This document shows, piece after piece, positions 12,205-35,912 of a stretch of 64,000 nt of DNA. Source of the DNA: an uncultured Acidimicrobiales bacterium (lineage in GTDB: Bacteria > Actinomycetota > Acidimicrobiia > Acidimicrobiales > SZUA-35); the NCBI GenBank assembly GCA_963751955.1, contig CAVVWM010000014.1, forward strand, positions 8,680 to 72,679, read 5' to 3'. The stretch's first letter is position 1. Every line of letters begins with the position of its first letter. Below the pieces are notes generated by a model. It had not been told where the DNA came from and ran no database searches. It worked only from the letters and a program-made list of their open reading frames with translations. Position numbers and translations under genes: made by a program.

Positions 12205-12981
12205 ATGGCTCCAACGATCTTTGGTCGCTTTTTCTCACCGGGTAAGCGTGCGCGGGTGAGTGGAAAGCCGACCTCGTCCAACGGCGCATCCAGTTTTCAT
12301 CTGTTCTGGGATGTTCCGCCGGAACCACTTCGAGCTGTCGCCGTCACGCTGACGGTCCTCGAACCTCCGGCCACACCGGACCTCTATTTCTGGGCGTTGC
12401 AGGCGTCGTTTCTGGACGCTGATCGGCGCAAAGGCGCAGCGCATCTCGGACTTCAACACCATCCGGGCTACCCGGGGTCAACAGCGGCGAACTGGGGTGG
12501 TTATGACAGCGATGGGCAGGAACTCGACGGCCAATTGCTCCTGTCCTCGTCGTTGAGCAATCCCAACACGTGCGACTTTCCGTGGGTCGCCGGCGTTAGC
12601 TACCGGCTCCGAATCGAGCCTTCGCCCGACAACGGTTGGCGCGGGAGCATCACCGATCTTTCGACTAGCTCTGAGATTGTGCTCCGCGACCTCAACGGGG
12701 GCGGATCAGCGCTTGGCAGCCCCATGGTATGGAGCGAAGTGTTCGCGGACTGCGGTGCCCCCTCAACAGCAGTTCGGTGGAGCGAACCCACTGTTGAGAC
12801 CGTGTCGGGGTACCTCATCCGGGTCACCTCCGCACGCGTGAACTATCAATCCGAGGCCGCCGGTGGGTGCTCGAACACGACAGCTGCAGCGCTCGATTCA
12901 GGTGTGCTTCAGCGCACGTCATCGGATCGTGTAGTCCCACCCAACACATTTGTGAGTTTCTACGACGATCAGGATCGCTGA
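12205..12981 (+). CDS. Hypothetical protein
   Basis: 258-aa ORF with plausible composition and no family I can name. Confidence 0.4.
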   Translation: MAPTIFGRFFSPGKRARVSGKPTSSNGASSFHLFWDVPPEPLRAVAVTLTVLEPPATPDLYFWALQASFLDADRRKGAAHLGLQHHPGYPGSTAANWGGYDSDGQELDGQLLLSSSLSNPNTCDFPWVAGVSYRLRIEPSPDNGWRGSITDLSTSSEIVLRDLNGGGSALGSPMVWSEVFADCGAPSTAVRWSEPTVETVSGYLIRVTSARVNYQSEAAGGCSNTTAAALDSGVLQRTSSDRVVPPNTFVSFYDDQDR

Positions 12982-13032
12982 CCCATGCTGGGGTAGCTGT
13001 CCCAAGAAAGTGCTTGTCGGCGTGAAGTACCC

Positions 13033-14478: not shown

Positions 14479-15446
14479 GCGCCCGTGTCCAGGAACGGAG
14501 CGTCACCCTGCTTCCCCAACGAGTTCAACGCCACGTGGTGCCTAACAGCGACGGCGTCCGGCGAGCCGTACAAGGCCTGAAGCCGATCGAGCGGAGCGTT
14601 CCTCACGATCACACGGTTGTGCATGGGCTCGATGTTGATCTCCCACTCGGTCGCTCCAGGCCCACGGTTGCGACCGTTCATGATCTCTCCGTGTTCGATG
14701 TCCCATGGACCTTCGACGGACTTCGGTCGCGGGGGGAGCGGGCTCTGCTCTCGTTCCATCTGAAGCGCGCCGATGCGCTGATCTCTGTGAGCAACTTCAC
14801 CGCCGAGCGATTGATGGACCGGTTCGGACTCGAATCCACCGTCGTTCACATCGCACCCTCCACCGAAGTCGTAGGACCAACCGAGGCCCAGGTCGGTTCA
14901 GTTCGGAGCCGGTTTCAGCTCCCGGATCGATTCGTGTTGTTCGTCGGCACGGTCGAACCACGTAAGGATGTTGCGGCACTTGCCGACGCATGCCGACGGA
15001 TCGGGATCCCGCTCGTTGTGGCGGGTCGTCGGATGAGCTCAGTGCCAAACGAAGAGGGCGTTCGATTCCTCGGCTATGTCGACACTGCGGATCTCGCCCC
15101 GCTGATGGTCGCCTCTACTGCGGTGAGCTATCCGTCGGTCTATGAGGGTTTCGGCTTGCCGCCTCTCGAAGCGCTTCAGGTTGGAGCGGTGAGCGTCGCA
15201 ACTTCGGTGGGGGCGTTACCCGAGGTCCTTGGCTCCTACGGTTATCCGTTGGTTCCCGCCAGCGACCCTGGTGCCCTCGCGGAACTGCTTGGCGACGTTG
15301 TCGGCGATGACATCCTCCGCGGGGCCATGCTCGCAGCCGGCCGAGATGCGCTGAGCCATCTCAGCTGGGAACGGGTGGCGAGCGAAACCATGCAGGTCTA
15401 CGCCGGAGTTGCATCGTCGACGGTCGAGGGAGGCAACAATGGCTAG
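14475..15446 (+). CDS. GT4-family glycosyltransferase (true 5' end probably upstream of first start codon)
   Basis: C-terminal GT-B motif YPSVYEGFGLPPLEALQVGAVSVATSVGALPEVLG. ATG 14475 overlaps the upstream stop (ATGA). However, the same frame is open back to 14334 and encodes a typical GT4 N-terminus (AIDHVYFNAVALVPSGSGVQTYARELISALA) with no ATG/GTG/TTG. Confidence 0.75.
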   Translation: MSARVQERSVTLLPQRVQRHVVPNSDGVRRAVQGLKPIERSVPHDHTVVHGLDVDLPLGRSRPTVATVHDLSVFDVPWTFDGLRSRGERALLSFHLKRADALISVSNFTAERLMDRFGLESTVVHIAPSTEVVGPTEAQVGSVRSRFQLPDRFVLFVGTVEPRKDVAALADACRRIGIPLVVAGRRMSSVPNEEGVRFLGYVDTADLAPLMVASTAVSYPSVYEGFGLPPLEALQVGAVSVATSVGALPEVLGSYGYPLVPASDPGALAELLGDVVGDDILRGAMLAAGRDALSHLSWERVASETMQVYAGVASSTVEGGNNG

Positions 15447-16548
15447 AGGAGCCGGGCAAGCCAGCAAGAACTTGGTGGTCGATGTCATCACAGAGCCATC
15501 GGCCGCTCGCCGGCTGGAACAGGAATGGAATGCTCTTGCGGTGTTGTGCGAGGCCCAGCCCTTTGGGTTGCCTGCGCTTGCTCTCCGGTGGTGGGAGCAC
15601 CTCGGGAAGGGACAACTTCGGATCGCCACGGTGCGGCATGGCGACGGTAGGTTGGTTGGACTTGCGCCGCTGTATGAACGATCCCGTGTCGGCGTTCGCA
15701 CGACTCGTTTTCTTGGATACGGGTTGGGGGCAATCGGTAGCCTGCTTTCGGTGCCGAGTCGGGCCAATGTGGACGGTGCGCTGTGGGAGGCGGTGCTCGG
15801 CGACGAGCGATCGACGCTGGTGCTCAATGACTACCAGTCCCACGCCGCTGGCTTCGACATGCTGCGTCGTTCGGACCGTTGGGCGTTCCGTGCCGAGCTG
15901 AGCGATGAGTGCCCGATCACCGACCTCGCCGAGTTCCCCGGTACCGACGTACTGCTCAAGGATCCATTGAAGTCTGGTGTGCGGAAGAAGTTGGCCCACG
16001 CTCGTCGAAACGCAGCGACCGAGCAGGTCACAGTCACGGTCGTTCAGAATCCTGGCGAGGTGCAGGTGGCGATGGACCGTGTCGGGCCTCTTTACGATCG
16101 AGCCGAGGACTTGAACCCGCGGCTGCATCTCGATCAGGCTCCGTACAGGCAGTTCTTCCGGGCCGCCCTCAGCGCCCTCGCTGATCGAGATCAGGTGGCG
16201 GTACTAACTCTCGACATCAACGGCGAACCTGCCGCGTTCGACGTGTATGTTCTCGTCGGTACGGTTGCCTACGCGATTCTCGGTCGCTACGACCCTCGCT
16301 GTGCCGACTTCTCACCCGGGCTGCTGCTCATGGATCGCGGCGTGCAGTGGGCTGTGGACCAGGGCATCCGCCGGATCGACTGGCAGCTTGGAGCCGACCC
16401 TTACAAGCTGCGTTGGTCGACCGATACCTACGACACATTCAACATCATGGCCGGGCACCCGGCGCGAACCAGGGCAGCTCGGCCGGTAATATCGGTGGCC
16501 GAGGTTGCCTACGACCTGAAGGAGCGAGCTACATCGTGGCGGACCTGA
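15439..16548 (+). CDS. CelD/BcsL-like (FemAB/GNAT-fold) acyltransferase
   Basis: MARGAGQASKNLVVDVITEPSAARRLEQEWNALA.. resembles cellulose-biosynthesis CelD-like acetyltransferases. gggagg lies 5 nt upstream of ATG 15439. Overlaps the preceding GT4 by 8 nt. Confidence 0.6.
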   Translation: MARGAGQASKNLVVDVITEPSAARRLEQEWNALAVLCEAQPFGLPALALRWWEHLGKGQLRIATVRHGDGRLVGLAPLYERSRVGVRTTRFLGYGLGAIGSLLSVPSRANVDGALWEAVLGDERSTLVLNDYQSHAAGFDMLRRSDRWAFRAELSDECPITDLAEFPGTDVLLKDPLKSGVRKKLAHARRNAATEQVTVTVVQNPGEVQVAMDRVGPLYDRAEDLNPRLHLDQAPYRQFFRAALSALADRDQVAVLTLDINGEPAAFDVYVLVGTVAYAILGRYDPRCADFSPGLLLMDRGVQWAVDQGIRRIDWQLGADPYKLRWSTDTYDTFNIMAGHPARTRAARPVISVAEVAYDLKERATSWRT

Positions 16549-17393
16549 TTCACCTTCCCACAACCATCCGTTCGCTTGCGGATTTCCAGAACGGCTTCGC
16601 TGTCCAGCACACGTTGGCCGAGCTTGAACTGCTGAACCCCGCTGGGGTACAGGATCTGGCCGATCGGCTCCCGCCGGGAAGTGCGGAGCCCGGTCGGAGT
16701 GGGTTGGTTGCCGAGGGAGGGCTGGGGTACATACGCGGTCCTATGACCGACGCCGGCCCGGCGGTGCGCGCCCTCCCGGGCAAGAACGCCTCGGTATATC
16801 TGTACAACGTCGAGCAAGACCCCGAGTATGGCCACCTCATCAGTCGCATCCTCGGTGAGGTGTCACACAAACTGGGGATGGCCGACAGCGACATCAAAAC
16901 TCACGAGGGCTACGTCTTTCTCACCGGGGGCGCTGCCACCACTTCGGTGCACGTTGACCACGAATACAACTTTCTCCTGGTCGTCAGAGGCCACAAACGT
17001 GTCTTCATAGCTGACGTACCCAGCGAAGAGGGTGAACGGGCTCTCGAGTCCATGCACAGCGGTGGGTACGGGACATGTGACTCGATTCCTACCTCGGGAA
17101 CAATGTTCGAGATCGGATCTGGTGAGGGCGTTTTTATTCCACCGCGAGCAGCCCACTACGTAGAGAACGGTCCCGGGCCCTGCGCTGCTCTGTCGGTGGT
17201 CTTCTCCACTGCAGAACTCGAGGCTGAGGCCAAGATGTACCGAACCAATGCGTTGCTGCGCAGAGTTGGGTTCGACCCAAAGAGTCCCGGTGTTTCCCCC
17301 AAGTTCGATCAGGGCAAGCGTTTGTTTGCCGATGTTGCGATGACAATCCGACGAGCTGGGCGAGCCATCACCAATCTTCGCACGGCCAATTGA
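16536..17393 (+). CDS. JmjC/cupin-type Fe(II)/2-oxoglutarate oxygenase-like protein
   Basis: HxD...H triad candidates (SVHVDHEY ... PPRAAHYVEN) in a cupin-like context. I chose GTG 16536 (aaggag upstream, overlaps the CelD-like stop) rather than the ORF-track start at 16347. Confidence 0.55.
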   Translation: MADLIHLPTTIRSLADFQNGFAVQHTLAELELLNPAGVQDLADRLPPGSAEPGRSGLVAEGGLGYIRGPMTDAGPAVRALPGKNASVYLYNVEQDPEYGHLISRILGEVSHKLGMADSDIKTHEGYVFLTGGAATTSVHVDHEYNFLLVVRGHKRVFIADVPSEEGERALESMHSGGYGTCDSIPTSGTMFEIGSGEGVFIPPRAAHYVENGPGPCAALSVVFSTAELEAEAKMYRTNALLRRVGFDPKSPGVSPKFDQGKRLFADVAMTIRRAGRAITNLRTAN

Positions 17394-18469
17394 TGGGTTC
17401 TCCGAGCGCCTTGGACTGAAACTCGTCTACAGCGGTAGCCGCGAGTTTTGGTGCTCCGTCAGAGGCGAACAGTCCAAAGTTGTCTTCGATGTCCTCAGGG
17501 TCGCCGTCGACTCGATCTCGAAGGTTGTACAGGAACAGTACCTCGATCCAATCGGTCTGATTCGCGCAACCCAGAGCGTCTGAGACCAGCCGCTCCTGCG
17601 TAGGCTGCGACACCGCTCGAGATGCGGTCCCGGTCGGTGCCCCGTACTCAGTTATCCAGAGCGGCATGAACTCGCCGGTCGACTCCGTGGCGAAGGCTTG
17701 GATCTGGGGAAGACGCCCAAAAAGATTCCACGACTTGGACGTGTCACCGGGCGAAGCCGGGTAGCTGTAGGGATGTATGCCGATCGCATCAATTGTTCCA
17801 GGCTCAATTGAGGCAAGAAAGCCCTCCAGGAACGTCTCGGGTGAGAGCTCCTCCCCGCGAGTCGTCGACTGCGGGCGCGAGGCCCCCGCTGATGATCTGA
17901 GCGCTGGGATCGATGCCTCTGATCGATCTGGAGGCCGTGGTCACGAGCGCAGCGAACTTCTGTGGATTCGGACCCGAGGATGCCGACCAGAACGAAGCCA
18001 CGTTGGGTTCGTTCCATATCTCCCAGGATTTGACCCCCCGGTCGCTGTATCTCTGGGCCGCAGTGGCCACAAATGCTCCGAAGTCGGTTGGGTTGGTGGG
18101 GGGATGTTTGTCGGTTGTGCCCGGCGGTCGTGCCCACCTGGGCGTATACGCGACGAGGGCGTGGACGGCGATATTGCGGGACTCGGCGGCCTCCACGATG
18201 CGATCGAGATCCGACCAGTCGTAGTCGCCCGCTGATCGTTCAATCCTCGACCAATCGAAGTCCAGGCGAAGATGCGTGAGATTCAGGTCGCTCATTCGGT
18301 CGAGGTCATCGGCGAGTGTCTCTGGGTCGAGATCCAGAATTCGCGAGCCGGGCGACATGCCCAGTTCCATTTGGTTCTTTGGGGCCTGTGGAACTTCTGG
18401 TCTGTTCAGGGAAAGGACGCCAATGACTGTCAAGAGGATGATGATGGCAATCAACTGAAGGCGCTTCAT
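17368..18469 (-). CDS. Clan GH-A glycoside hydrolase (GH5/GH39-like), signal-anchored; one frame break at the C-run 17853-17856
   Basis: N-terminal anchor MKRLQLIAIIILLTVIGVL, acid/base motif WEIWNEPN, nucleophile motif LWITEYG. The two ORFs (17804..18469 and 17368..17667) are bridged by the in-frame peptide EELSPETFLEGFLASIEPGTIDAIGIHPYSYP once one base of the gggg run is removed. Confidence 0.75.
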
Positions 18470-20368
18470 CCCGACGACAAATCACCAACGGTGGCCAGCT
18501 GGTGATCGGGCCAGGATCGCTGTGGACGAAGAAGGTGGTACAGGAACCGTGCCGGAGACGAGTGAGCACCCATGGTCAATCGAGGAAGGCGGAGATTGTC
18601 GACCCCGCCGGTGGCACGGCCATTCAGGAACGTGCACGCTGAGGTATATCCGGCGTCTACGACTGCGGCGCGAACCGACGGATCGTGGTGCCCGCTGGGA
18701 TAGGCCATGGCTTGGACCCGGCGATCGGTCAGCTCCTCCAGGGCGAGTCTTGAGCGACGCAGCTCATCGTCAACCTCGCAGTTCTCGAGGGCTACGAGAG
18801 AACGGTGGGTGGCCGTGTGGGAGCCGAGAGAATGGCCGGCTGCTACGGCCGAGCGCAGTTCCTCCGAGGTCATCGTCCTCTCGGCACCGGGCCAAAAGGC
18901 TGGCGGCTCTCCGGGGTGGTCGGTGGGAACGAAGATCGTGGAGCAGATTCCGGCGTCGTTGAGGACGGGGAGCCCCACACGGGAAACCCCGGCCAGCGCG
19001 TCGTCAAAAGTGACAGCGAGAAGTCCGCCGGGGTCCTCCCCGGATGAGACGAGCTGAGCCATGAAAGAAACATCAACGACCCGCAGCCGGAGTGCTCGGA
19101 CAAGGCGGAGGTGTGATCGAAGTTGAGATTCGGTCACGGTGAACTCGTCGATACCGGGCTTCAGCGGCGTGTGGTCTTCCACCACGTTGTGGTAGGCGAG
19201 GATGACCCCACCCCTCGGGGTGAATTTCATCGCCGTATTTCCCCGGTGGTTTTGTGCCGCAATGGCCTGTTCGAACACGTCGGTGAGCGCCTCGATAGCC
19301 ACGGCCATATCGTACCGTTCCTCGAAACGACGGCGTGCTGCGGCCCCCATCCTGCGACGCAGGTTCTCGTCGTCCATGAGGGTCTGAATGGCTGCTTGGA
19401 GCGCCTTGCTGTCATTGGCTTCGATGAGAAACCCGGTCTCGCCGTGCGCAACCATCTCGCCGACGGCGCCAGTGTTGACTGCAACCACGGGCAAGCCGGC
19501 TGCCATCGCCTCGAGCACGGCATTTGGTGCTTGATCGATCGAGGAGGGAAACGCGAATATCGAGCAACGTCCGAGTAAGTCCCATAGGCGGTTGTCGCCC
19601 TGTTCGAGGTCGGAGACAACCGAGATGTTTTCTGCCGCGTCCATGGGTTCAGTGGTGACGATGAGCAACTGAGCCGGCCCCGAGAGTTGCGAAAACGCTT
19701 CGAGGAGCACTTCGCCACCCTTGGCCTTGAATTGACGGCCGATGAAGCCGATCGTTGGTGCATCGGTCCTGCCAACACCGGTGGTGGGAGAAGGAATGCT
19801 CCACGAAATTCCAAACGGAATTGTCCTGAGTTTGTCGGGTCCGACTGCGTACTCGGTCGACAGCGATTCACGCGCCCAGCTCGAGTTGGCGACGACGACT
19901 GTGCTGGCGTGTAATGCTCGCCGTTCGATCGGCTTTGGTAAGGGCGACGGTTAGCCGCGTGAATCGGGTAGGCATTCGCTGAGGGATGCGATAGGCGTTG
20001 TGGACATTGGTGGTATCCGTGCTGATCACCATCGGTGTCTCGGGTGTCAGGAGGAGAGCGGCGTTCTGGGTGTATACGTGAAGAGCGTCGTAGGTTCCGC
20101 GGCGATGGCGAACGGCGCGTCTCACCCAGTAGCTGAGAGCGAGCTGGGCACGCAGCGGCTGGAGGTCGAGATCGAGGCGAGCGAGCCCGGGAATCCGCGC
20201 ACCAATCAGGCGCCTCAAGAGGCCCGGCTCGGGAACGTCGAGGAACGTTGCGTCGATACGTGGATGATCGCGAAGACCAGCCCTCAGGTGGTTGTGTACG
20301 GTCGCATGTCCGCCAATGTTCTCGTTGACGAACAGCACTCGGATTCTGGCTACTGACTGATCGGTCAT
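18466..20368 (-). CDS. Bifunctional GT4 glycosyltransferase / NodB-type polysaccharide deacetylase (frame break between 19871 and 19950)
   Basis: ORF 19868..20368 is the GT4 N-domain. The 18466..19710 frame is open upstream to about 19950 (KPIERRALHASTVVVANSSWARESL..GFIGRQFKAKGGEVLLEAF). It continues through the GT4 C-domain (AFPSSIDQAPNAVLEAMAAGLPVV) into a NodB-like domain (VTFDDALAGV..GSHTATH). ATGA overlaps occur at both ends (20365-20368 and 18466-18469). Confidence 0.75.
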
Positions 20369-21495
20369 CGGGTCACCGCGCTGGAGATCACCGAAGCAAA
20401 GTGAGCCCTTGACCGGGTGATCGAATAGTTGTCTTCGACTTTCTGCCGACCCCGCTGGCCCAGCTCGCTGCGACGGTGCGGATCGGTGAGCAGCGTCGAG
20501 ATGGCCTGTGCCAACGCCTCAGCATCTCCAGGGATGACGTTGACACCGGCGGCGGCCAAAACCTCCGGCGCTCCGCCATGGTTGCTCACCACCACCGGTA
20601 TGCCCAAGCTCATCGCTTCCAAAACTGACAGAGGCCCAGCTTCTGGCTCGATGCTGGCTGACACCGCAATTGACCACCGCCGCATCACCTCGAGTGGCGT
20701 AGCGGAGTGGCCAAGGAACCGAACCCGTTCGTGCAATCCCAGGGCACGGACAGTTTCGCGAAGCTCGGCCTCATAGGGTGCGTCGCCGGGAAAGGTTCCG
20801 CCGAGAATCTCGGCAGCAAACGGGTGCTCGATCCGGGACATCGCTTCGAGGAAGACGCGGTGCCCCTTCCATTCTGTGAGCATCGCATTGATACCGATGA
20901 TCGGCGGGTCCTCAGCGGGTCGGGCGGGTGGGACCGGCCAATTCACACCGTTTCGCACGACGGTGGATTGGATCCCGAGTCTCTCGGGTAGTGTCATCGA
21001 TACATCGGAAACTCCGATCGCCAGCGTGACCGCCCGAGCTCCGAGCCGTGCAACGAGCTCGAGATCTTTCCGGGTGATGACATCGTGAACCAACCAGCAC
21101 ACCGGCGGTGTGACCCGTGCCGGGACCAGTGCAGGAAGCGACATGACGGAATTGGCAACGATCACGTGAAATTGGCGTGAGTGGCGCCGCAACAATCTTG
21201 CCATTGCGATGTTCTTGCGGGCCAGGGAGAATGCCGACCGCGCCTTGGAGCCCCCGGTCAGACGTAACTCGGGCGTCTCTATCCACGAGACGCCTGTTTC
21301 GTGAATGAGTTGGGCCAATGGTCCCGGTGGGCAGCCGAGCGACCATCGTTCGCCCCTTGCCACACCTGCCGACGCGTAGTCGATGAGAACTCGCTCGGCT
21401 CCCGACACGAGCGATGTTGGCGAGAGAGCGAGCACTCTGAGTGGTGGTGCATCGGCCTCGACTTGTTGCACGTGACCCCTGTCCTTCATACTCAA
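20365..21495 (-). CDS. GT4-family glycosyltransferase
   Basis: 376 aa. EAMSLGIPVVVSNHGGAPEVL GT-B C-terminal motif. Confidence 0.8.
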   Translation of the reverse strand: MSMKDRGHVQQVEADAPPLRVLALSPTSLVSGAERVLIDYASAGVARGERWSLGCPPGPLAQLIHETGVSWIETPELRLTGGSKARSAFSLARKNIAMARLLRRHSRQFHVIVANSVMSLPALVPARVTPPVCWLVHDVITRKDLELVARLGARAVTLAIGVSDVSMTLPERLGIQSTVVRNGVNWPVPPARPAEDPPIIGINAMLTEWKGHRVFLEAMSRIEHPFAAEILGGTFPGDAPYEAELRETVRALGLHERVRFLGHSATPLEVMRRWSIAVSASIEPEAGPLSVLEAMSLGIPVVVSNHGGAPEVLAAAGVNVIPGDAEALAQAISTLLTDPHRRSELGQRGRQKVEDNYSITRSRAHFASVISSAVTR

Positions 21496-21594
21496 CGGCT
21501 ATGGACGGAGTGGCGGCTCAGTCTGAAAAGCCACTCGAGCTGAACGTCAAACGCTGTACGTGGTTGCTGGGCCGGCAGCACGGTCGGCATCTCT

Positions 21595-22152
21595 GTGGTC
21601 AGTTACGCAATGCATCTGGTAACAATGGCAGCCGACACCGAGTCGATCGCGACCCTGGACGTGGGCGATGAGGTGAGTATCGGCACGTGGTTCGGGAGCT
21701 TGCTCTTCCTTCTGGCCGCGGCGGCTCTCTTTCTTGCAGGACGGCAAGAGCCACGGCCCAGTCGATGGTTGGGATGGAATTCGCTGGCGGTCGTGATGGT
21801 GGCCTTGTCGATCGACGAAGCGGTCTCGCTTCACGAGCGCTTCGGAAACGTTCTCGAGGAGGTGGTGGGGAGTGGCGGCTACCTGCATTACGTCTGGGTT
21901 GTACCTGGCATGATTTTCACCGTTGGTGTCCTGGTCGCGCATCTTGGTTGGCTTCGCTCGGTCCGGCCTGCCACCAGATTCGGAATGGTCGTGGGAGGCG
22001 CGTTGTTTGTGCTGGGAGCCGTCGGACTCGAGATTGCAGCGGGTCCCCTGGCCGAGGCCCAGAAGGACGGCACATTGGCCCTGGTCACATTGATCGCTAT
22101 CGAGGAGTTGCTCGAGATGGCGGGTCTGACGGTGTTCACAGTGGCTGTTTGA
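21595..22152 (+). CDS. Hypothetical integral membrane protein
   Basis: 185 aa with about 5 hydrophobic helices. It is the only plus-strand gene inside the minus-strand GT block. Confidence 0.45.
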   Translation: MVSYAMHLVTMAADTESIATLDVGDEVSIGTWFGSLLFLLAAAALFLAGRQEPRPSRWLGWNSLAVVMVALSIDEAVSLHERFGNVLEEVVGSGGYLHYVWVVPGMIFTVGVLVAHLGWLRSVRPATRFGMVVGGALFVLGAVGLEIAAGPLAEAQKDGTLALVTLIAIEELLEMAGLTVFTVAV

Positions 22153-22209
22153 GGCATCTCCGCGGAGCTCATGATGGCCTGTTGATCGGCTGAGGGGACC
22201 ACTGATCGA

Positions 22210-23337
22210 TCACGGAGTCCGCAGCGGCCTCGACAGCAGCCGATCCGTCTCTTCGACCATCCGTTGTGCAAACGCTTCTTCGGAGAACGACGACGCATGT
22301 TTGATGATCAGCGACTGATCGAACGGTAGATCGGGCGTTGTGAGCGCTCGGGCAAACCGAGCCACCAATTCCTCCCGTTGCCCGCTGTCTTCCAAGAGAA
22401 CACCGGTGGAGCCCTCAACCACCGTGTCGAGGAGACCGCCACGATTCACGCCGATCACCGGAGCGCCATGGGCCATCGCTTCAACAGGAACGATTCCGAA
22501 ATCCTCCACGCCTGGAAAGACCAGCGCCTGACACCGGCGATACAGATCGTGGAGTTCACCGTCGGAGACAACACCCAGGAAACGAATAGTTGGGCCTGCG
22601 ATCGTTTCGCATCGGTCGCGGAACCTCCCGTCGCCGGCCACCACCAGCGGAACACCAGCACGGGTGGCGGCTTCAATCGCAATGTCGGTCCGCTTGTATG
22701 GGACCAGCCGGCCAGCGAGCAGGAAGAAGTCCTCTCGGGCCGTGTTCTTGGTGAGATCGGGGTCTTCGTCGAGGGCAACCGGAGGTGGAATCACAATGCT
22801 CGAACGGCCCCACCACCGTGAGATGCGGTTCGAAACCTCGCTGGAGTTGGCGACGAGGAGATGTGGCTTCTGGGCGGCCGAGCGATCTGCCCGTCGTAGC
22901 GTGGCGGCGAAAGCCGAGAGCACCGCATTGGACACCGGTCCGGGCGCATCGGCGGAACGAAGCATTGGATCCCACATCCAGCGAGCCGGGCTGTGAACGT
23001 AACTCATCGTGGGAACGTCGCTGCCGATCCGCACGCGATGAGAGAACGCATGGTGGCTGAGGATCGCCAGGTCGGTACCGGCGGGGACCTCGAGGCTCGC
23101 CATCGCTGCGGGCAGCAGTGGCAAAAGGTGGCTGTATTCGCTGTCGCCTCGATAGAGACGCTCCAACCAAGAAGTGGAGGTTTCAAGGGCTTGGAGTTCG
23201 GGGCCGAGGATCTTGCGGTCGATAATCGGCGCCAGCAACGTTGAATGTGGCCAGATACGAGCTAGCGCCTCGACGACCTTCTCCGATCCACCCATCTCGG
23301 TGAACCGTTCATGGACGATCGTGACTGCAGGACTCAC
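22210..23337 (-). CDS. GT4-family glycosyltransferase
   Basis: FPGVEDFGIVPVEAMAHGAPVIGVNRGGLLDTV motif. I prefer GTG 23337, which forms a GTGA overlap with the upstream stop at 23334-23336, over the ORF-track start at 23364. Confidence 0.8.
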   Translation of the reverse strand: MSPAVTIVHERFTEMGGSEKVVEALARIWPHSTLLAPIIDRKILGPELQALETSTSWLERLYRGDSEYSHLLPLLPAAMASLEVPAGTDLAILSHHAFSHRVRIGSDVPTMSYVHSPARWMWDPMLRSADAPGPVSNAVLSAFAATLRRADRSAAQKPHLLVANSSEVSNRISRWWGRSSIVIPPPVALDEDPDLTKNTAREDFFLLAGRLVPYKRTDIAIEAATRAGVPLVVAGDGRFRDRCETIAGPTIRFLGVVSDGELHDLYRRCQALVFPGVEDFGIVPVEAMAHGAPVIGVNRGGLLDTVVEGSTGVLLEDSGQREELVARFARALTTPDLPFDQSLIIKHASSFSEEAFAQRMVEETDRLLSRPLRTP

Positions 23338-24640
23338 GCTGGATCGACCGCGGTGGAGGGCCACGCTGCCGATCGACGCCCCATGCGGAATCCACCGTCG
23401 CTGTACAACACGATGCCGGCGAGTCGAGCTCCGACCGACCGCATTCGATCGATCAAATCAACAACTTCGGCTTCCTTGAGACGCACTGGGTCGAACGCAA
23501 GCACGGTGGCGTCACCAAAGTGGCGGGTGACAAGCAGTGTGTCATCGAGCGATGAGTTGGATGTTGTGCTGAGCACGACACAGTCGGCGCCCGAAGCACT
23601 GACGAGCTCATGGGTTGCATGTACCCTGTCGAAAGCCGACAGGTCCGTTGGCGTTGAGCCCGCACTGAGCACGGCGGCCGGGTTGGAGTCGCTCGCTCGG
23701 CGCACGACTGATCCCAGCGGCTCACCTCCCGTCAGGACCTCGGCGAGACCGGGTGTACGCGGGTGACCGAAGTGTCGATGCAGGATCGGCTGGGCGAGGT
23801 CGGCGTCGATGAGTAGCACTCGGCTGTTGAGTCCGGCCGCGGTCCTGGCCAGTAGGGCGGCTGGTTCGGTAGAGGGCTCCGGGCCGCGTTGCACGATGGT
23901 GATGAGCGGTCGTTCTGAGAGGTGGTTGGAAAAGAACGGAAGAAGCGAACGATTCTGGGATCGTTCCGAACGCAAGTCGGCAACGGGGATCCCTGTAATA
24001 CCTTCGAGGACCGGAGCGGGATCGACCGGGTTGATATGGCCCCTCAACTTCCTCCACACCACCACCCCCTCCGCGGACAGAAGGCCACAGATCACAGCTG
24101 CCACCGCTGCATCCGCGAGCGGACGGGGCGAGACCGGTGAGTTTGGAGAGTCTGCGGGGGATATTACGGCGACGACCACCCCGGTTTCGGGCGACGTGCC
24201 TTCGGCGGCAAGTTCGTCGGCCAACGCCTGGGCCAGCTTCGATGCCTGCTCGCCTGTGCTCGCGGCCGCGGTGATCTCGAGGAAGCCCGGTGTTTCGCGC
24301 TGTTCTACCACGACGCGATCGCCGACGTCGGACGGGTCGAGGCCGGTGTCTCCGGCTGTCACGTTCGCTGCGTCGAGGACCGCGGGGAAAAGGCAAGTTC
24401 GGCGAGCGATCGGGTTCTGAAGCGGGTTGTGGAGCCGTCGTCAAACAAGTCCTCGGGCAACTGGACCCGCACGACCGCTGTCGACTCATACCGCGGCTCC
24501 GCCGAGTTGCTCCACAGGTACATCGCGGTACCCGCCGCAGCGGTGATGAGGAGGATCAGGACCCAATGGCGTGCCATCTCACGGACATGACGGCCAAACT
24601 CCGCTTCGGGTGGCTTCACTGTGGCGTAGGGCGCAGTCAT
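23334..24640 (-). CDS. Polysaccharide co-polymerase (Wzz-like N-domain plus BY-kinase-like domain with degenerate Walker motifs); frame break at the G-run 24384-24387
   Basis: N-terminal TM plus YESTAVVRVQLPE (Wzz-like). Adding one c joins AELAFSP to AVLDAANVTAGD. The C-domain has LLIDADLAQP (Walker A'-like). Where GxxGxGK[ST] is expected it reads QRGPEPSTEP, and where hhhhDTPP is expected it reads CVVLSTTS. ATG 24640 overlaps the WbaP stop (ATGA). Confidence 0.7.
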
Positions 24641-26154
24641 TTCACTGATCGCGGGAGCAATTCGCGAAGGGTTCGCATGACGATCCGCAGATCTCCCATC
24701 AGTGACCAAGACTCGACATAGGTGTTGTCGAAACGCACCCGCTCGGCTATCGAAGTGTCACCCCGCAGTCCACTGACTTGGGAGAGGCCGGTGAGGCCTG
24801 ATGGCACTCGATGGCGGTGGTGATAGCGGCGGTTGAGGGTGGCGAACTCTCCGACGAAGTGCGGACGTTCGGGGCGCGGCCCCACGAAGCTCATCTCGCC
24901 CCGGAGGATATTGACCAACTGAGGCAGCTCATCCAATGAGCTAGCACGCAGGAGTGCTCCCAGTCGCGTAGGTCCTCTGGTGGACTCGCCGGCCCACTCG
25001 GTGTCGGCGGTCTCGGTCGATGCGTTGGGCAAGGAACGGAACTTCAGCATCTGAAATTCTTGACCGTCGATGCTGACACGTACCTGGCGAAATATCACCG
25101 GTCCCCCCATCGTGATACGTATGGCGATCGCAATCGCCAACAGCAGTGGGCTGAGGGCGAGCAGTAGGATCGCGGCGAGGAGGCGATCCAGAATCAGCTT
25201 GACCTTCCATGCAATGGTTCGATGTGCTGCACGGCGAAGTCTGCGCAGGGAAATCGATCGAAGTCGCTCGACCTCGGCTGGGGCTCCCCAGTCGAGTTCG
25301 TACAGCCTCGGCACCAAGAAGAACTCGGCCCGCTCTCGGTGATACCGCTGTAGGTATTCCACGAGCTGGGAATCCGGAAGTGAGGAGTATCCGATCACAA
25401 CGACCGTTGCACCCGTTTGCTGAATCGATCGGCCCAGACTTGTGGAGGAGAACACGGGCAGGTGACGCTTCACACCCCTGAGAGGCTCCGGATCATGGAA
25501 TGCCACGGGTGTCAATCCGTACTCGGGATACGACGAGAGTGTCTCCGCGATCTCGGCTCCGACCAATCCGGCGCCGACGATGAGGGTTCGATGGCTGACT
25601 ATTCCGGTCCGCCGCACGAACCGAAGGAGCCAGCAGCCAACCGCTCGGACAATCACGATGGCCCCAGCGGCCGCCGCTACGGCGACCCACCAGCTACGGC
25701 CGTACTCACCGCCCAGCTGAGGGATCGTGGCCGTTCCGTTCTGGCTCAGCATGTAGATGAACGATCCCACAACCAGCACGCCACCGATCAGTGCCGGGGC
25801 GTCGTCGACCGTGCTGGGCGCAAGGCGGGATCTGTACAGTCCACGGGACCCATTGAGAGCCAAGACGCAGACGGCAGCTATAGCTATTCCGGTCGGATTT
25901 TGGCCGAACAGCGCCAACGTCACGACGAACGCTGTCATTTCGCCAATCATGAACCACGGCGGTGTGCCAAAGCTCGCCAGGTTGCGCCCAACGCTGGTAG
26001 AACCGGTCCCGGGAGCGACTACTTGCCGTCGGGATTCGAAAACATCGATCTCGGGATTCCGCATGTCGAGTTGCGTTGCCGTCGCCCGAAGTGGGGTTTC
26101 GTCATCGCTGGAGTTCTCGCGCCCCCACTCTCGGGTTCTATGAAGTAAAACCAT
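24637..26154 (-). CDS. Polyprenyl-phosphate sugar phosphotransferase (WbaP/bacterial sugar transferase family, priming enzyme)
   Basis: 505 aa with N-terminal TM helices and a C-terminal PVIFRQVRVSIDGQEFQMLKFRSL .. ELPQLVNILRGEMSFVGPRPERP. Confidence 0.85.
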   Translation of the reverse strand: MVLLHRTREWGRENSSDDETPLRATATQLDMRNPEIDVFESRRQVVAPGTGSTSVGRNLASFGTPPWFMIGEMTAFVVTLALFGQNPTGIAIAAVCVLALNGSRGLYRSRLAPSTVDDAPALIGGVLVVGSFIYMLSQNGTATIPQLGGEYGRSWWVAVAAAAGAIVIVRAVGCWLLRFVRRTGIVSHRTLIVGAGLVGAEIAETLSSYPEYGLTPVAFHDPEPLRGVKRHLPVFSSTSLGRSIQQTGATVVVIGYSSLPDSQLVEYLQRYHRERAEFFLVPRLYELDWGAPAEVERLRSISLRRLRRAAHRTIAWKVKLILDRLLAAILLLALSPLLLAIAIAIRITMGGPVIFRQVRVSIDGQEFQMLKFRSLPNASTETADTEWAGESTRGPTRLGALLRASSLDELPQLVNILRGEMSFVGPRPERPHFVGEFATLNRRYHHRHRVPSGLTGLSQVSGLRGDTSIAERVRFDNTYVESWSLMGDLRIVMRTLRELLPRSVK

Positions 26155-26331
26155 TAGTCGCCATTCCGCTTTTACTTGAGTTCTTTTTCTATCGCAGTTG
26201 CGCCTCAGAATCTACGAGGTCCTTGCAACTCTGCCACATCATCGATCACTATATGTGGTCAATGGTTGGTCGCTGACTGCCACCAGCAAAACGACCGGCT
26301 TCGGCGGCGGCGTCAGAGACTTTGAGGTTGC
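26155..26331. promoter_or_regulatory. AT-richer divergent intergenic region (probable promoters for the WbaP operon and the plus-strand unit)
   Basis: The composition is visibly lower in GC (cttttacttgagttctttttctatcg, cactatatgtgg) than the surrounding sequence. No confident -35/-10 pair could be assigned. Confidence 0.3.
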
Positions 26332-26652
26332 ATGGTCTCGGACTGGATTGCATGCCGAACGTATTCAGAAAACAAGGAGGTACTTATCACTACCAAGCGT
26401 GACCAAGGAGGGAGTTCCGCAGATCATGTGAACTTGGACACTGAGCCTGCCGACGAGCACGTTTGGAACGACTTCGAGGCCCTAACGGAGGAACGCGATT
26501 CGCTGCTGGCCGGGCTTGCGGCCCGCACCGGCCAGTTGCAGGCGGCACTTGGAGAGCTACATGAGGCTCAGGCTCAGCTGGCCCGCCTACGGGCCGAGAA
26601 CGATTCGAGAGCGTCGACCGTGGACTGGAAGCGCATTCTGAACCCCGAGTAG
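26332..26652 (+). CDS. Small coiled-coil protein A (hypothetical; start uncertain)
   Basis: Heptad-like LLAGLAARTGQLQAALGELHEAQAQLARLRAEN and C-terminal DWKRI. aaggagg at 26374-26380 lies inside the ORF, so the real start may be later. Confidence 0.4.
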   Translation: MVSDWIACRTYSENKEVLITTKRDQGGSSADHVNLDTEPADEHVWNDFEALTEERDSLLAGLAARTGQLQAALGELHEAQAQLARLRAENDSRASTVDWKRILNPE

Positions 26653-26850
26653 CCGACGTGGCACAAGCCAGATCTTGGCCTCGATCCATTGCGGCCTTCC
26701 CAAAAAGCGATCTGAAGTAGGACCAGCACGACCGGAAACCGAGGAGATTTTGCTGCCTACAGCAACCACGGACGTTGGTAGTCTCTTCCAATCCGAGTTT
26801 GGCGGCGGCTCACGCAGAACGATGGTCGGGCGTCCGACGACTTTGTCGCC

Positions 26851-28026
26851 GTGCTCAGGGCTTCGACAGCAACGCTCCTCGGCCGAAACCTCGGGCCGTT
26901 CCTGTCGTCGGCGCCGGTCGAGCGCATTCGAAGAGTGCTCTTCCAGGTTGGCCTCGACGATGTCGTCGAGATCGCCGATTCGCTCACCGGCGGCTGTGTT
27001 GGCTGGTGGCTCGCCGGCGGTTGGGGTATCGACGGTCTCCTCGGCTCGCAAACCCGCCCCCATGAGGATGTCGACATTTGCATCGACGTCGCCAACGACG
27101 GCGAGCAACGTGCCGTTCGGCTACTTGGCGGCCTCGGGTTTCAGCTCGTAGAAACGCGCGCTCGGGGCGGCCGATACCTTCCCGTGCGTTGTATTCTGCG
27201 TAATCGGGCCGGGCGTGCCATTGATTTACTGATGGTGCAACGGGAGGTCGACGTCGCACCGCCCGATCCACTGACGGGCTGGGCGATTCCAGTCCTGACC
27301 GAAACCGATATAACCAGTGGTGAGATCGATGGCCACCGGTTTCCTGTGCTCAGCGTCACCGCCCATCTCGAAGCTCGTTCGGTGTACCAACCAATGGCCC
27401 GGGACCATCGCGACATGGTGCGGCTGTGCGAGGCCTACGGTCTCGAGCTTCCTGCAAACTATCTGTCGAGAACGCGTCGATACATCGACGGTTCGAAACG
27501 GCTGTTGGGCAGGTTCCAAACAGCGAGCGCCCTTCTCATCGCAGTTCCCGAGGTTGGGGTTGTGTTGGCCGACCTTGATGCCGAGGACTCGGGTTTGCCG
27601 CCCCACATCACCGTGCTCTACCCATTCAAGAAACCCGGCCAAATCAAGTCGCCCGACGTCCGAAAGCTGACCGAGCTGGCACGGTCGGCGGAGTCGCCAA
27701 TCCCTTTCGAACTCGACAAGGTCAGAGACTTCAACGGTGACGCATATCTGGCACCAAATCCTTCCCAGCCCTTTGTTGAGCTAACCCAGACAGCTTCTGA
27801 GATCTGGCCGGACCACCCGCCCTACGGCGGCAAGTTCGACGACATCGTTCCCCATCTCACACTTGGGGTTCGAGATCTTTCGCCGGTCGAGATCGACGAA
27901 CTTTCCAACAAGCTTCCGGTGTCGGCTTGCGCCACCGAACTTCTGCTTCTCACCCGGAACCGACGGGGCCGATGGACCGAGCACTCACGGTTCTCGATCG
28001 GGTCCAGGTCGGAGTCGAAGCGGTGA
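26851..28026 (+). CDS. Fusion of a Pol-beta-type nucleotidyltransferase (ANT(2'')-like) and a 2H phosphoesterase (LigT-like)
   Basis: N-domain: LAGGWGIDGLLGSQTRPHEDVDICI (G[GS]..DxD) and a later IDLL acidic residue. C-domain: two HxTx motifs (PHITVLYPF and PHLTLGV). Confidence 0.7.
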   Translation: MLRASTATLLGRNLGPFLSSAPVERIRRVLFQVGLDDVVEIADSLTGGCVGWWLAGGWGIDGLLGSQTRPHEDVDICIDVANDGEQRAVRLLGGLGFQLVETRARGGRYLPVRCILRNRAGRAIDLLMVQREVDVAPPDPLTGWAIPVLTETDITSGEIDGHRFPVLSVTAHLEARSVYQPMARDHRDMVRLCEAYGLELPANYLSRTRRYIDGSKRLLGRFQTASALLIAVPEVGVVLADLDAEDSGLPPHITVLYPFKKPGQIKSPDVRKLTELARSAESPIPFELDKVRDFNGDAYLAPNPSQPFVELTQTASEIWPDHPPYGGKFDDIVPHLTLGVRDLSPVEIDELSNKLPVSACATELLLLTRNRRGRWTEHSRFSIGSRSESKR

Positions 28027-29458
28027 CCGACAAACCCGTCGGTTTGCTAACGAATGCTTCTGCGCTGCTCTCAGGTCGTCTCGCTATTGCGGTCATGGGC
28101 TGGGCGGGAACGGTCATCATCGTTCGGACGCTGTCCGAGACCGGATTCGGCTATTTCACACTCGTCTTCAGCATTCTTGGTATGGCCTCGATAGTCACCG
28201 ATTTCGGGCTCGGACGGGTCGCGATCAGTGGAGTGCTCGCCCCCGAGGCCGACGCAGGTTCCTTCGCAGGGACCTATGTGGTTTTGCGGACACTCCTCGG
28301 CGTTGTCGGCTATGCCCTCGCTGTCCTTTTCGTCGTCATCGGGGGTTATCCCGAGACCGTCGTGAGAGCCACGGCGCTGGCTGGTGTGATGGTTCTGATT
28401 GCAACCCCGTCCAATGCGTACGACCTCGCATTTCAGGCGCACATGCGAATGCCGCTCGTCGCGGTTGCTCAGGTGGCGGGCCAGGCCGCTCAGCTAGGTC
28501 TTACCGTTGCAGTAGCGGTCGCAGGTGGCGGGCTCCTCTGGTTCGTCGTCCCCGCGGTCGTGGCAGAGGTGGTGATCCTGGCCATCAAGATAGGACCCGC
28601 CCGAAACTCATCGACTTCCGGTATGCGATCAGATTGTCTGTCTGGCTGGCTCTCATGAAGGAAGCCGTCCCCCTCTCGATCGGTGGAGCGCTGGTCACGC
28701 TTTACACCCGGGTCGATGCAGTGATGCTGTCGCAGTTGGATACTTTCGCCTCGGTTGGCGTGTACGGGGTCGCCGCCAAGTTCGCTGATTTGGCGAGATT
28801 TGTCGCATCCGCTTTGACGGTTCCGATTCTCACGTTGTTTGTGAGCGCATGGCCCGACCGCATCAAGGAGTTTCGATCTGCTTTGGTCAAGGGTTGCATG
28901 TTTCTTGGTTTCTTCGGAGGCGCAATTGTGGTGGAATTCACCCTCTTCGCTGACGATGTGATCGAACTCTTGTACGGGCCAACGTTTCGCGTCGGCGGTA
29001 CCGCCACGAAACTGCTGGTGCTCGGCGCCACTTTGGACTTCTTCACCACGCTCGCGTTCAGCGCGCTGGTGGCCATGTCTCGAAATCGGGTTTATCCACT
29101 CACTGCCCTGCTCGGTCTGGTTGTGAATGTCGGACTGAACCTTTGGCTTATTCCGCTCTATTCCTTCGAAGGAGCGGCGGTCGCCACAGTGGCGACAAAC
29201 ATCCTGGTCGTGGCCGTCATCTGGGCTCAGCTGCTCCGGCTGCCGGATTTGACGCCCCTCAAGCTCGGGTTTCTCAGTGGAGTTTTGCCGGCCATGGCGG
29301 CAGCCGGAGCGACCGGATGGGTAACCAATCGCTACTTGCCGTGGCCGATTGCTGGAGCGATCACGATGGCGGTCTATGTTGGGGGCGTCGAAATCACCGG
29401 AGCCGCCGGCCCCGGCGGGATTCGCCTGATCCTCGCTCGTGTCGGGCGCCGACAATGA
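28023..29458 (+). CDS. Wzx-type (MOP superfamily) polysaccharide flippase; frame break at the A-run 28604-28606
   Basis: The frame-0 ORF (..LTNASALLSGRLAIAVMGWAG..AEVVILAIKIGPAR) joins the frame-2 ORF (KLIDFRYAIRLSVWLALMKEAVPLSIGG..) if one a is added. About 12 or more helices. The start is either GTG 28023 (GTGA overlap) or ATG 27972. Confidence 0.75.
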
Positions 29459-29492
29459 CGCCTTGTAGGGTTGGGGATTACTGTAGGCGTTC

Positions 29493-29879
29493 ATGCACAA
29501 CGCAGAAGTTCCGGTGCCGTCGGGTTCGGTTGAAAGGTGGCATTCGGTGAAGCGGCGTCTCCGCATTCCTTGGGAGGAAGGCGCGTCGAGTCCGCTGGAC
29601 CCGGAGCCCAAGTTCAACCCCCCGTCTTCTGATTCGGGTATCGGGTACGCCCAACGCGAGGCCGAATCGCTCCAAGCCGAGATCGAGCAGTTGCAGGATC
29701 TGTTGGCTGCCCGGACTGCAGCCTGGCGAGAGGCCCTGCGACAACTTTCCCAGGTTCAGGACGAAATCGATGCGGCCGGCCAGAGCTCGCTGGAGAATCG
29801 CCGGATTCAACCTCTGTCCGAAGAGGACTGGGTGCGGATTCATAGCAATAGCTTGAAGCCGAGGGGCCAGCGGCGCTGA
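29493..29879 (+). CDS. Small coiled-coil protein B (hypothetical; paralog of 26332..26652)
   Basis: LQDLLAARTAAWREALRQLSQVQDEI .. EEDWVRI parallels protein A (LAART, AL..L...Q, DWxRI). The stop TGA 29877-29879 is the first bases of the 19-bp array. Confidence 0.4.
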   Translation: MHNAEVPVPSGSVERWHSVKRRLRIPWEEGASSPLDPEPKFNPPSSDSGIGYAQREAESLQAEIEQLQDLLAARTAAWREALRQLSQVQDEIDAAGQSSLENRRIQPLSEEDWVRIHSNSLKPRGQRR

Positions 29880-30379
29880 TCTAACCCAGCTGTGCTGATC
29901 TAACCCAGCTGTGCTGATCTAACCCAGCTGTGCTGATCTAACCCAGCTGTGCTGATCTAACCCAGCTGTGCTGATCTAACCCAGCTGTGCTGATCTAACC
30001 CAGCTGTGCTGATCTAACCCAGCTGTGCTGATCTAACCCAGCTGTGCCGATCTAACCCAGCTGTGCTGATCTAACCCAGCTGTGCTGATCTAACCCAGCT
30101 GTGCTGATCTAACCCAGCTGTGCTGATCTAACCCAGCTGTGCTGATCTAACCCAGCTGTGCTGATCTAACCCAGCTGTGCTGATCTAACCCAGCTGTGCT
30201 GATCTAACCCAGCTGTGCTGATCTAACCCAGCTGTGCTGATCTAACCCAGCTGTGCTGATCTAACCCAGCTGTGCTGATCTAACCCAGCTGTGCTGATCT
30301 AACCCAGCTGTGCTGATCTAACCCAGCTGTGCTGATCTAACCCAGCTGTGCTGATCTAACCCAGCTGTGCTGATCTAAC
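29876..30379. repeat. 19-bp perfect tandem array, 26.5 copies (unit ctgatctaacccagctgtg)
   Basis: Read directly: 26 full units plus 10 nt, with a single substitution (T to C at 30048). Each unit contains GATC and CAGCTG palindromes and stop codons. A period of 19 is not a multiple of 3. There are no spacers. Confidence 0.97.
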
Positions 30380-30517
30380 AATGAGTGCTGGCCCAACTCT
30401 CTCCGTCACATGTTCGCAACATCTCCAATTGGGCTGCTACCCTCTCACCATCGTCTGAGCCGTGAAGTTCTTGTGACCGATCGGTAACCAATTCAGGACC
30501 AGAGGGGTCAAACAGTC

Positions 30518-31096
30518 GTGTCGAAAGAGATCGACCAACTTGTAGAGAAGGCCAGAGACGGTGACCACCGCGCCTTTGAACAACTTGTTCGAGAAACCTA
30601 TGTCGACACGTATACCTTGGCCTTCCGGTTGACCGGGGATCCAGAAGATGCACGCGATGTGGTGCAGGAGGTGTACCTGAGGGTGCACAAGAGCCTGCGC
30701 CGATTCCGTGGTGACTCGCAGTTCAAGACCTGGCTGCATCGAATCACTGCGAACTGCGCAAGCACACTTCTGGGACGGCGCACAAAGCACCGTCACGACC
30801 CGATGCCTGAAGATGCACCAATCGCCGACAACAACCCTGAGCTGGATCCAGCTGCAAGGGCAGACACCGGCGTACTGCGAAACCAACTCACTGATGCCTT
30901 GAGGGGCCTTCCCCCCAAGCTCAGCGCGGTTGTGGTTCTGCGAGATATCTACGATTTCTCACACGAAGCCATTGCCGCCGAACTCGGTATCTCAGAATCT
31001 GCTGCCAAGGTACGTCTCCACCGGGCCCGCAAGCGCCTGCGCGAGATTCTCCGTACGCACGAAGATTCTGAAGAGGCCGAGGCGCATGCAGTGTGA
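30518..31096 (+). CDS. ECF-type RNA polymerase sigma-70 family factor
   Basis: 192 aa. Region 2 (HRAFEQLVRETYVDTYTLAFRLTGDPEDARDVVQEVYLRVHK) and region 4 (AVVVLRDIYDFSHEAIAAELGISESAAKVRLHRARKRL). GTG start. Confidence 0.85.
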   Translation: MSKEIDQLVEKARDGDHRAFEQLVRETYVDTYTLAFRLTGDPEDARDVVQEVYLRVHKSLRRFRGDSQFKTWLHRITANCASTLLGRRTKHRHDPMPEDAPIADNNPELDPAARADTGVLRNQLTDALRGLPPKLSAVVVLRDIYDFSHEAIAAELGISESAAKVRLHRARKRLREILRTHEDSEEAEAHAV

Positions 31097-31448
31097 CGAC
31101 GTAATCCTTCACCTCGCACAGTCGCCCGATGAGGCGTCGAATGACTACCTTCGGTTGCCGGTGCGACATCACCTCGCTACTTGCCTGTCCTGTCAGGCGG
31201 AGCGGGCTCAGTACCGTCGACTGCACCGAGAGCTTCAGACGCTGCGCTACGACGTCGTGATGCCCGACGATCGACTACTGGTCGATGTCCTCGATAGCGT
31301 CCGTCCACCGGCAACGGTGACACAACTGAGGCCGAGCCGCCGCAAAGCGTATGTCGGCGGCATCGCTGCCGCAGCAACCGCAGGCGCAGCAGGAGCGCTC
31401 GTGCTGGTATCCAAACTCAGCTCCAAGGGTCACCGTCTAGCCGGATAG
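31086..31448 (+). CDS. zf-HC2 anti-sigma factor, single-pass
   Basis: HHLATCLSC fits Hx3Cx2C. C-terminal TM (GGIAAAATAGAAGALVLV). Overlaps the sigma gene by 11 nt. Confidence 0.7.
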   Translation: MQCDDVILHLAQSPDEASNDYLRLPVRHHLATCLSCQAERAQYRRLHRELQTLRYDVVMPDDRLLVDVLDSVRPPATVTQLRPSRRKAYVGGIAAAATAGAAGALVLVSKLSSKGHRLAG

Positions 31449-35881: not shown

Positions 35882-35912
35882 AAAAGGCCCGGTGCTTCGC
35901 ACCGGGCCTTTT
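35882..35912 (+). terminator. Rho-independent terminator after rplL
   Basis: 13-bp stem aaaaggcccggtg/caccgggcctttt with a 5-nt loop. The T-run is on the 3' arm. Confidence 0.8.

Follow-up and report, generated by a model that had tools for sequence, protein, structure and literature searches.

A long, nearly pure 19-bp tandem array at the junction of a variable EPS gene cluster and a conserved ECF sigma factor operon in an uncultured Acidimicrobiales bacterium

How did one 19-bp unit, repeated almost without change over 504 bp, come to fill the space between the last gene of an exopolysaccharide (EPS) cluster and the gene of an ECF sigma factor in an uncultured Acidimicrobiales bacterium, and does it do anything there? 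The locus lies within a stretch of 64,000 nt, referred to here as the window, whose host is assigned to the Acidimicrobiales (Actinomycetota) by comparison of loci anchored on NusG. The array and its immediate surroundings are as follows.

29493..29879, + strand: gene B, encoding a small coiled-coil protein of 128 aa, the last gene of the EPS cluster (ORF)
29867..29875, + strand: degenerate partial unit CCAGCGGCG, 7/9 identical to CCAGCTGTG (start reported by TRF; in-phase comparison)
29876..30379, no strand: tandem array, 19 bp × 26.5, unit CTGATCTAACCCAGCTGTG, one substitution at 30048
30380..30398, no strand: weak candidate for a decayed terminal unit, identical at 11 of 19 positions when offset by 1 nt

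The array is made up of 26.53 (∼26.5) head-to-tail copies of the unit, and its sole deviation is a T to C change at 30048, where unit 10 reads CCGATC. TRF (period 19, 27.0 copies, 99 % matches, score 1005) places the start at 29867, because the 9 nt that precede the array are themselves a 7/9 copy of part of the unit. These 9 nt encode the last three codons of gene B, Q-R-R, and are probably the seed or the edge of the array, whose first full unit contains the TGA of gene B (29877–29879). At the other end, the candidate decayed unit resembles the array unit with p ∼0.013 against random 19-mers from the window, and shows no homology to relatives in the upstream alignment described below. Chance cannot produce such a repeat. 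The extent, period, copy number and single substitution given in a preliminary description of this locus were thus reproduced from the sequence and by TRF, as was the start of the array at the stop codon of a coiled-coil gene, for which family evidence from phmmer is given below.

In all three frames of both strands a stop is reached within ∼13 codons, so the array is non-coding, as the same description had held, and a coding repeat is ruled out. The units abut with no spacer between them, which rules out a CRISPR array with its unique spacers. The unit contains 32 % C and 21 % G, and each copy carries two palindromes, GATC and CAGCTG, which occur 27 and 26 times, respectively, in the array. 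Because of these two palindromes per unit, single strands of the array fold better than shuffled controls (z = −3.1 for a DNA strand of 133 nt and z = −4.6 for an RNA of 721 nt), and the predicted RNA centroid of the region is a long imperfect hairpin. Folded single-strand structures of this kind favour slippage. The array has no match to a known structured RNA family, and in a search of the window with the Rfam covariance models only three tRNAs reached the gathering score.

Gene B has no match in Pfam or NCBIfam, and a word-indexed search returned only its own protein. An exhaustive phmmer search, however, recovered small homologues of 73–129 aa (E 4e-11 to ∼1e-3), which rules out a spurious ORF. 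The family alignment has invariant residues L60, E63, L67, L71, R74, L85 and W113 and the core L..EI..L...LA.RTEAWR.ALRQLS ... EPLSD.DW. A small ORF elsewhere in the window shares these invariant residues and is a paralogue, so that the window holds two members of the family, and the members located are the following.

Window, 26332–26652: paralogue of gene B
Window, 29493–29879: gene B
Contig L041, 6001–6306: homologue
Contig L042, 6001–6363: homologue

The homologues P0129 and P0132 are encoded divergently from a Bac_transf gene in similar EPS clusters on other contigs, and the paralogue at 26332–26652 occupies this same position. Members of the family are thus typically encoded divergently from the Bac_transf priming glycosyltransferase in EPS clusters of Actinomycetota. 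There is no tandem array near the homologues at L041–L043, which rules out that protein family and array form a pair of binding protein and binding site.

Comparison with relatives placed the array at the edge of a much larger feature that was not part of the preliminary description.

12900..30400, no strand: lineage-specific insertion, an EPS/glycan cluster, with the array as its right edge (blastn synteny, Pfam)

This insertion introduces ∼17.5 kb of EPS genes between tuf (∼10.8–12.0 kb in the window), together with gene X, a conserved gene of 258 aa at 12205–12981, and the sigma gene. In relatives whose sigma factors are 88–96 % identical (L004, L005, L007, L033 and L035), tuf and the sigma gene are only 0.1–5 kb apart, hence the tuf-sigma interval is a hotspot of variable content. 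By blastn, homology with the relatives resumes at 30403–30405, 24 bp past the end of the array, which therefore marks the right border of the insertion. According to Pfam, the cluster encodes GT4 glycosyltransferases, a polysaccharide deacetylase, a GNAT protein, the Bac_transf priming transferase and a Polysacc_synt flippase, and it also includes a nucleotidyltransferase/2H-phosphoesterase fusion. Some of its ORFs appear truncated or fused, namely a glycoside-hydrolase fragment (17804–18469) and the C-terminal half of a GT1 enzyme joined to a polysaccharide deacetylase (18466–19710), and these odd ORFs may reflect either further frameshift errors or real gene decay. The GC content of the island is that of its flanks, and a comparison of its two borders revealed no shared 11-mers of note and no obvious flanking direct repeats. 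Insertion of a mobile element with direct repeats or foreign composition is rejected on these grounds.

On the other side of the array lies a conserved region with the following features.

30403..30425, + strand: first conserved block, CCGTCACATGTTCGCAACATC, where homology resumes (blastn and alignment of nine relatives)
30433..30444, + strand: second conserved block, GCTGCTACCCTC, containing TACCCT, which is TAnnnT-like (alignment)
30471..30512, + strand: conserved ECF-type promoter, TGTGACCGATC-GGTAACC (30483–30489), 17-nt spacer, GTCAAA (GTC at 30507–30509)
30518..31096, + strand: ECF sigma factor, 192 aa (Pfam Sigma70_r2 and Sigma70_r4_2; in NCBIfam, the sigma70-ECF superfamily only)
31086..31448, + strand: putative anti-sigma factor, 120 aa, with H-x3-C-x2-C (ORF; weak NCBIfam match, E 1.6e-4)

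The sigma factor has thousands of homologues at 68–97 % identity. The putative anti-sigma ORF overlaps the sigma stop, its position is conserved in relatives, and it is followed by tRNA-Trp, secE, nusG, rplK and rplA. The GTG start at 30518 is separated from the end of the array by 138 nt, as described previously, and the identity of the sigma gene is borne out by Pfam and NCBIfam. The 170 nt before the sigma start were aligned with those of nine Acidimicrobiales relatives, and this revealed three conserved blocks, all of them downstream of the array, while nothing upstream of 30403 is conserved. The core of the first is GTCACATGnnCGCAACAT at 30405–30425. The hexamer of the second reads TACCCT, TACGCT or TACCGT in the relatives, and to judge from this pattern it is a candidate housekeeping −10 element, although a scan with the sigma-70 consensus did not call it. 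The third block (30471–30512) has the pattern TGTGAC...TCGGTAACC-N-GGGGTC(A/T)AA. Its GGTAACC-N-GGGGTC(A/T)AA is present in L003, L004, L033, L035, L036, L037 and L038, and L005 and L007 have the variant AGTAACC...GGGGTCCAA. A promoter candidate, GGTAAC-N18-GTC at 30483–30509, had been proposed at this position and called weak; the position stands, but conservation in nine relatives shows that it is not weak. The GTC lies 8 nt before the GTG start, which suggests that the sigma transcript is probably leaderless or nearly so, and an ECF-type promoter at this distance implies that the transcript is autoregulated.

Because the array stops 24 bp short of any conservation and 104 bp upstream of the −35 element, the number of units cannot alter the spacing of the sigma core promoter, contrary to an earlier suggestion. 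It can only alter the distance to the upstream DNA, which here is the end of the inserted EPS cluster. Nor do the units themselves contain promoters. Each carries GATC..TAACC, which is similar to GATCGGTAACC at the real −35 of the ECF promoter, but its TAACC has ATC after it at 11 nt, whereas the conserved promoter has GTC at 17 nt, and a sigma-70 consensus scan of 29300–30700 found no sigma-70-like sites. In the same interval no intrinsic terminator was predicted, including between gene B and the sigma gene; by contrast, a textbook terminator is predicted after rplL, at 35883–35914.

The array is confined to one species-level lineage. Allowing up to 3 mismatches, there is no other copy of the unit in the 64-kb window, and the 19-mer is absent from the GTDB genomes (one genome per species), from viral contigs (IMG/VR) and from the 72,556 plasmids of PLSDB, where no similar array was found either. 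A single match in JGI metagenomes, to a eukaryotic tropomyosin transcript in an unrelated contig, is due to chance. On the coverage of the window and these collections, we reject a dispersed repeat family, which the preliminary description had named as a possible refutation of a link to this locus. There is no comparable array in 345 kb of related loci, and the relatives with sigma factors 88–96 % identical to that of the window lack it. Its restriction to one lineage, together with its purity, argues for a very recent origin, as had been proposed from purity alone; it is missing even where the sigma factor is 96 % identical.

Which class of repeat does the array belong to? In Actinomycetota, MIRU elements are tandem repeats located between the genes of an operon-like arrangement, where they overlap the stop codon of the preceding gene, and the array shares both of these properties. 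MIRU units, however, are 40–100 bp long, with few copies per locus and many dispersed intergenic loci per genome, whereas here 26 copies of a 19-bp unit occur at one locus with no dispersed copies found, and MIRU is rejected on these grounds. The array has the properties of a VNTR or minisatellite: units in the range of ∼10–100 bp are arranged head to tail with high identity (1 mismatch in 504 bp), and they occur at a single locus as far as the window, GTDB genomes, viral contigs and plasmids are concerned. In this it resembles the VNTRs used for MLVA typing of Burkholderia pseudomallei, which are locus-specific head-to-tail arrays of 9–100 bp units in tens of copies, with very high unit identity, often intergenic, and originating by slippage or unequal exchange (PMC1853098). 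It differs from the VNTRs of typed pathogens in its host, an uncultured environmental member of the Acidimicrobiales, in its location on the border of a genomic island and in that its polymorphism is unproven. Although unusually long and pure, it has the appearance of a common type of VNTR and not of a novel class of element. The likely explanation is a real, non-coding minisatellite of very recent date, particular to this lineage, that arose by slippage or unequal exchange and was seeded from the 3′ end of gene B.

Whether the copy number really varies depends on other assemblies of the same locus. Two further public contigs, one from JGI and one from Logan, encode a protein identical to that of gene B, and a search for exact matches to the sigma and anti-sigma proteins led to no contig other than this one from JGI. 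The JGI contig (Ga0484979_0003972, L038) is 99.75–99.8 % identical to the window over 12.9 kb, and its 27 substitutions indicate that it comes from a different population. Its array is built from the same unit and has left and right junctions identical to those of the window, but with only 5.5 copies (105 bp). The Logan contig (L039, from SRR35386096) has the same left junction and ends 29 nt into the repeat, the behaviour expected of a k = 31 graph. The left junction is therefore reproduced in three assemblies, including the window, and the right junction in two, and the array is not the invention of one assembler. The length of 105 bp, however, is the shortest that is at least k−1 and congruent with 504 modulo 19 for any k of 88–106, so that 5.5 copies are also what a short-read k-mer collapse would give. 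A second array in this contig, with a 106-bp unit, is likewise shorter than in the window by exactly two units, and its 195 bp are the minimum traversal for k of 91–196. With both arrays at the minimum traversal length, their short versions may be collapse artefacts. Variation in copy number, from 26.5 in the window to 5.5 in the JGI contig, is thus likely but unproven.

TRF found two more long arrays within the 64-kb window. The array with the 106-bp unit is near-perfect, G-rich and intergenic (35965–36371, 3.8 copies), lies between the rplL terminator (35883–35914) and an EamA-type gene that starts at ∼36394, and has 1.84 copies in the JGI contig. The other is coding (1520–1935, 9 bp × 46) and specifies a (Pro-Val-Asp)n linker in a large secreted-type protein. 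The frame is broken within it (ORFs 788–1645 and 1730–2374), probably by assembly indels. Three long arrays in 64 kb indicate a genome that is prone to tandem expansion.

An alternative to a merely young minisatellite is a contingency-type regulatory VNTR, in which copy number would change frequently and thereby control either how strongly the ECF sigma operon is expressed or how the EPS operon is processed at its 3′ end. This might happen in two ways. In the first, upstream elements would be shifted in distance or helical phase relative to the conserved promoter region, as in Neisseria meningitidis nadA, where a (TAAA)n tract acts by changing the spacing of distal and proximal operator sites (PMC2791445). 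Like that tract, the array is located upstream of a core promoter; unlike the 4-bp tract, which has conserved operators on both sides, it has nothing conserved on its distal side, where the DNA is a lineage-specific insertion and hence holds no old element for which spacing could be important. In the second, transcription of the array would give a long untranslated RNA that folds into a hairpin, as for the (ATCTTTC)n tract of Haemophilus influenzae hmw1A and hmw2A, where expression is inversely related to repeat number (PMC12721329; PMC8262952). The two have in common a long array (>10 units) upstream of a gene and, perhaps, its transcription into such an RNA, and the predicted hairpin (z = −4.6) and the lack of a predicted terminator between gene B and the sigma gene speak for a regulatory role. 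The hmw tract, however, is built of 7-bp units and belongs to the 5′ UTR of the gene that it regulates, downstream of the promoter (PMC12721329; PMC8262952), whereas the conserved promoters here are downstream of the array, which could appear in RNA only on read-through transcripts of the upstream operon.

A third precedent comes from within the Actinomycetota. The promoter repeats of Mycobacterium tuberculosis dop, lpdA and cysG are also found upstream of leaderless or near-leaderless genes, their copy number is likewise obscured by short reads and revealed by long ones, and phase-variable copy number has been proposed for them (PMC12817950). Their 54–58 bp units contain the promoter and lie 12–29 bp from the gene, so that extra copies add promoters (PMC12817950). 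The array differs in having a 19-bp unit with no promoter and in ending 138 bp upstream of the gene, outside the conserved promoter region, and a repeat of the M. tuberculosis type is rejected since the unit is shorter than the distance from −35 to −10, contains no sigma-70-like site and has its ATC at 11 nt. Together with these precedents (PMC2791445; PMC12721329; PMC12817950), a regulatory role gains from the position of the array only 24 bp upstream of a conserved regulatory region and from the difference of 21 units between two assemblies of populations that are 99.8 % identical. Contingency tracts switch expression through unit changes within an ORF, a core promoter or a 5′ UTR, whereas the array begins at a stop codon, ends 104 bp upstream of the −35 and stays clear of every conserved promoter block and any ORF. 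Its unit is far longer than those of typical contingency tracts, k-mer collapse at k of 88–106 would give just the size of the 5.5-copy form, and the host lineage is free-living and environmental, with no known phase variation. A contingency locus is, on this evidence, unlikely.

It might also be argued that the assembler created the array or exaggerated its length. The window and the short-read contigs differ by three indels, each of them a single-base homopolymer deletion in the window.

28604: A4 in the short-read contigs, A3 in the window
36096: G6 in the short-read contigs, G5 in the window
36574: T5 in the short-read contigs, T4 in the window

Noisy long reads typically give such errors, a consensus error could account for the single substitution at 30048, and the independent JGI assembly has 5.5 copies only. 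The same pattern, however, points to a long-read assembly as the source of the window, and single reads would then have spanned the 504-bp array. Moreover, assemblers collapse tandem repeats rather than expand them, an argument also made by others (PMC12817950), and since both arrays of the JGI contig are at the minimum traversal length (105 bp for k of 88–106, and two units fewer in the array of 106-bp units), it is the short version that is the more suspect. A pure artefact, an option left open by the preliminary description, is contradicted by the recurrence of the unit and left junction in two independent assemblies and of the right junction in one, and inflation of the array is very unlikely. 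The A-run deletion at 28604 also splits the Polysacc_synt flippase (∼27927–29458) between two frames; the JGI contig has A4 and encodes an intact protein of 495 aa, and the Logan contig has one gap somewhere in the same stretch. The flippase frameshift is thus likely a long-read consensus error and not a pseudogene.

Most improbable is that the 26 phased CAGCTG/GATC sites recruit a DNA-binding protein (a nucleoid protein, a partition/iteron-type protein or, through the −35-like CTAACC, the ECF holoenzyme) or, as a patch of Dam-type methylation, insulate or silence the junction. The two palindromes per unit and the likeness of GATC..TAACC to GATCGGTAACC are in its favour, but a 19-bp period is not helically phased, the units have no GTC at 17 nt from their TAACC and hence are not promoters, and a dedicated binding protein is unlikely for an array so young and lineage-restricted. 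GATC is ∼2.6-fold over-represented throughout the window (632 observed versus ∼230 expected from base composition), so such sites do not set the array apart. Next to the array there is no rep or par gene, nor another gene for a DNA-binding protein (the neighbours are EPS enzymes, the small coiled-coil protein and the sigma gene), homologues of gene B elsewhere lack arrays beside them, the context is that of the chromosomal core (tuf, secE, nusG and rplK), and no similar array occurs in 72,556 plasmids. Plasmid iterons and partition centromere arrays of the parC or sopC type are rejected by these neighbours, which further include ribosomal protein genes, and by the lack of a PLSDB match.

The interpretation that remains preferred, that of a young minisatellite, leads to the following scenario. 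A 19-bp segment, CCAGCGGCG|CTGATCTAAC, comprising the last three codons of gene B, its stop and the 6 bases that follow, would first have been duplicated, and the duplicated unit would then have been amplified and homogenised by replication slippage, unequal recombination or both. The GATC and CAGCTG palindromes probably helped this expansion because they allow single strands to fold back. It would have taken place at the junction of a recently acquired or variable EPS cluster with the conserved block of ECF sigma, anti-sigma, tRNA-Trp, secE and nusG genes. The array itself would have no sequence-specific function and would act as a hypermutable untranslated spacer of 0.1–0.5 kb. Since no intrinsic terminator is predicted after gene B, transcripts that read through from the EPS operon would include the array, as untranslated RNA that is structured and slightly richer in C than in G. 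Through its length the array could have a modest effect on the amount of upstream transcription that enters the sigma operon. The conserved promoters of the sigma gene, lying wholly downstream, would stay untouched.

Against a neutral interpretation it must be counted that a perfect array of 26 copies beside a regulator gene could be maintained by selection. Quite unlikely, in our view, is that the array is a selected, copy-number-variable cis element in free-living Acidimicrobiales, serving either as a structured untranslated buffer of 0.1–0.5 kb that tunes read-through from the EPS genes into the ECF sigma/anti-sigma operon or as 26 −35-like CTAACC/GATC sites that sequester a factor. If this were true, the expression of cell-envelope polysaccharide and an envelope-stress sigma circuit would become linked, or unlinked, in a stochastic manner.

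If the array is only a young VNTR, it provides a hypervariable strain marker for an uncultured Acidimicrobiales population and shows where a variable EPS island, inserted between tuf and a conserved ECF sigma operon, has its border. It would also be a case in which a long-read assembly resolves 26.5 copies where short-read metagenome assemblies break (Logan) or give a perhaps collapsed 5.5 copies (JGI). Should copy number affect read-through, repeat-based stochastic regulation would extend from host-adapted pathogens and M. tuberculosis to environmental Actinomycetota.
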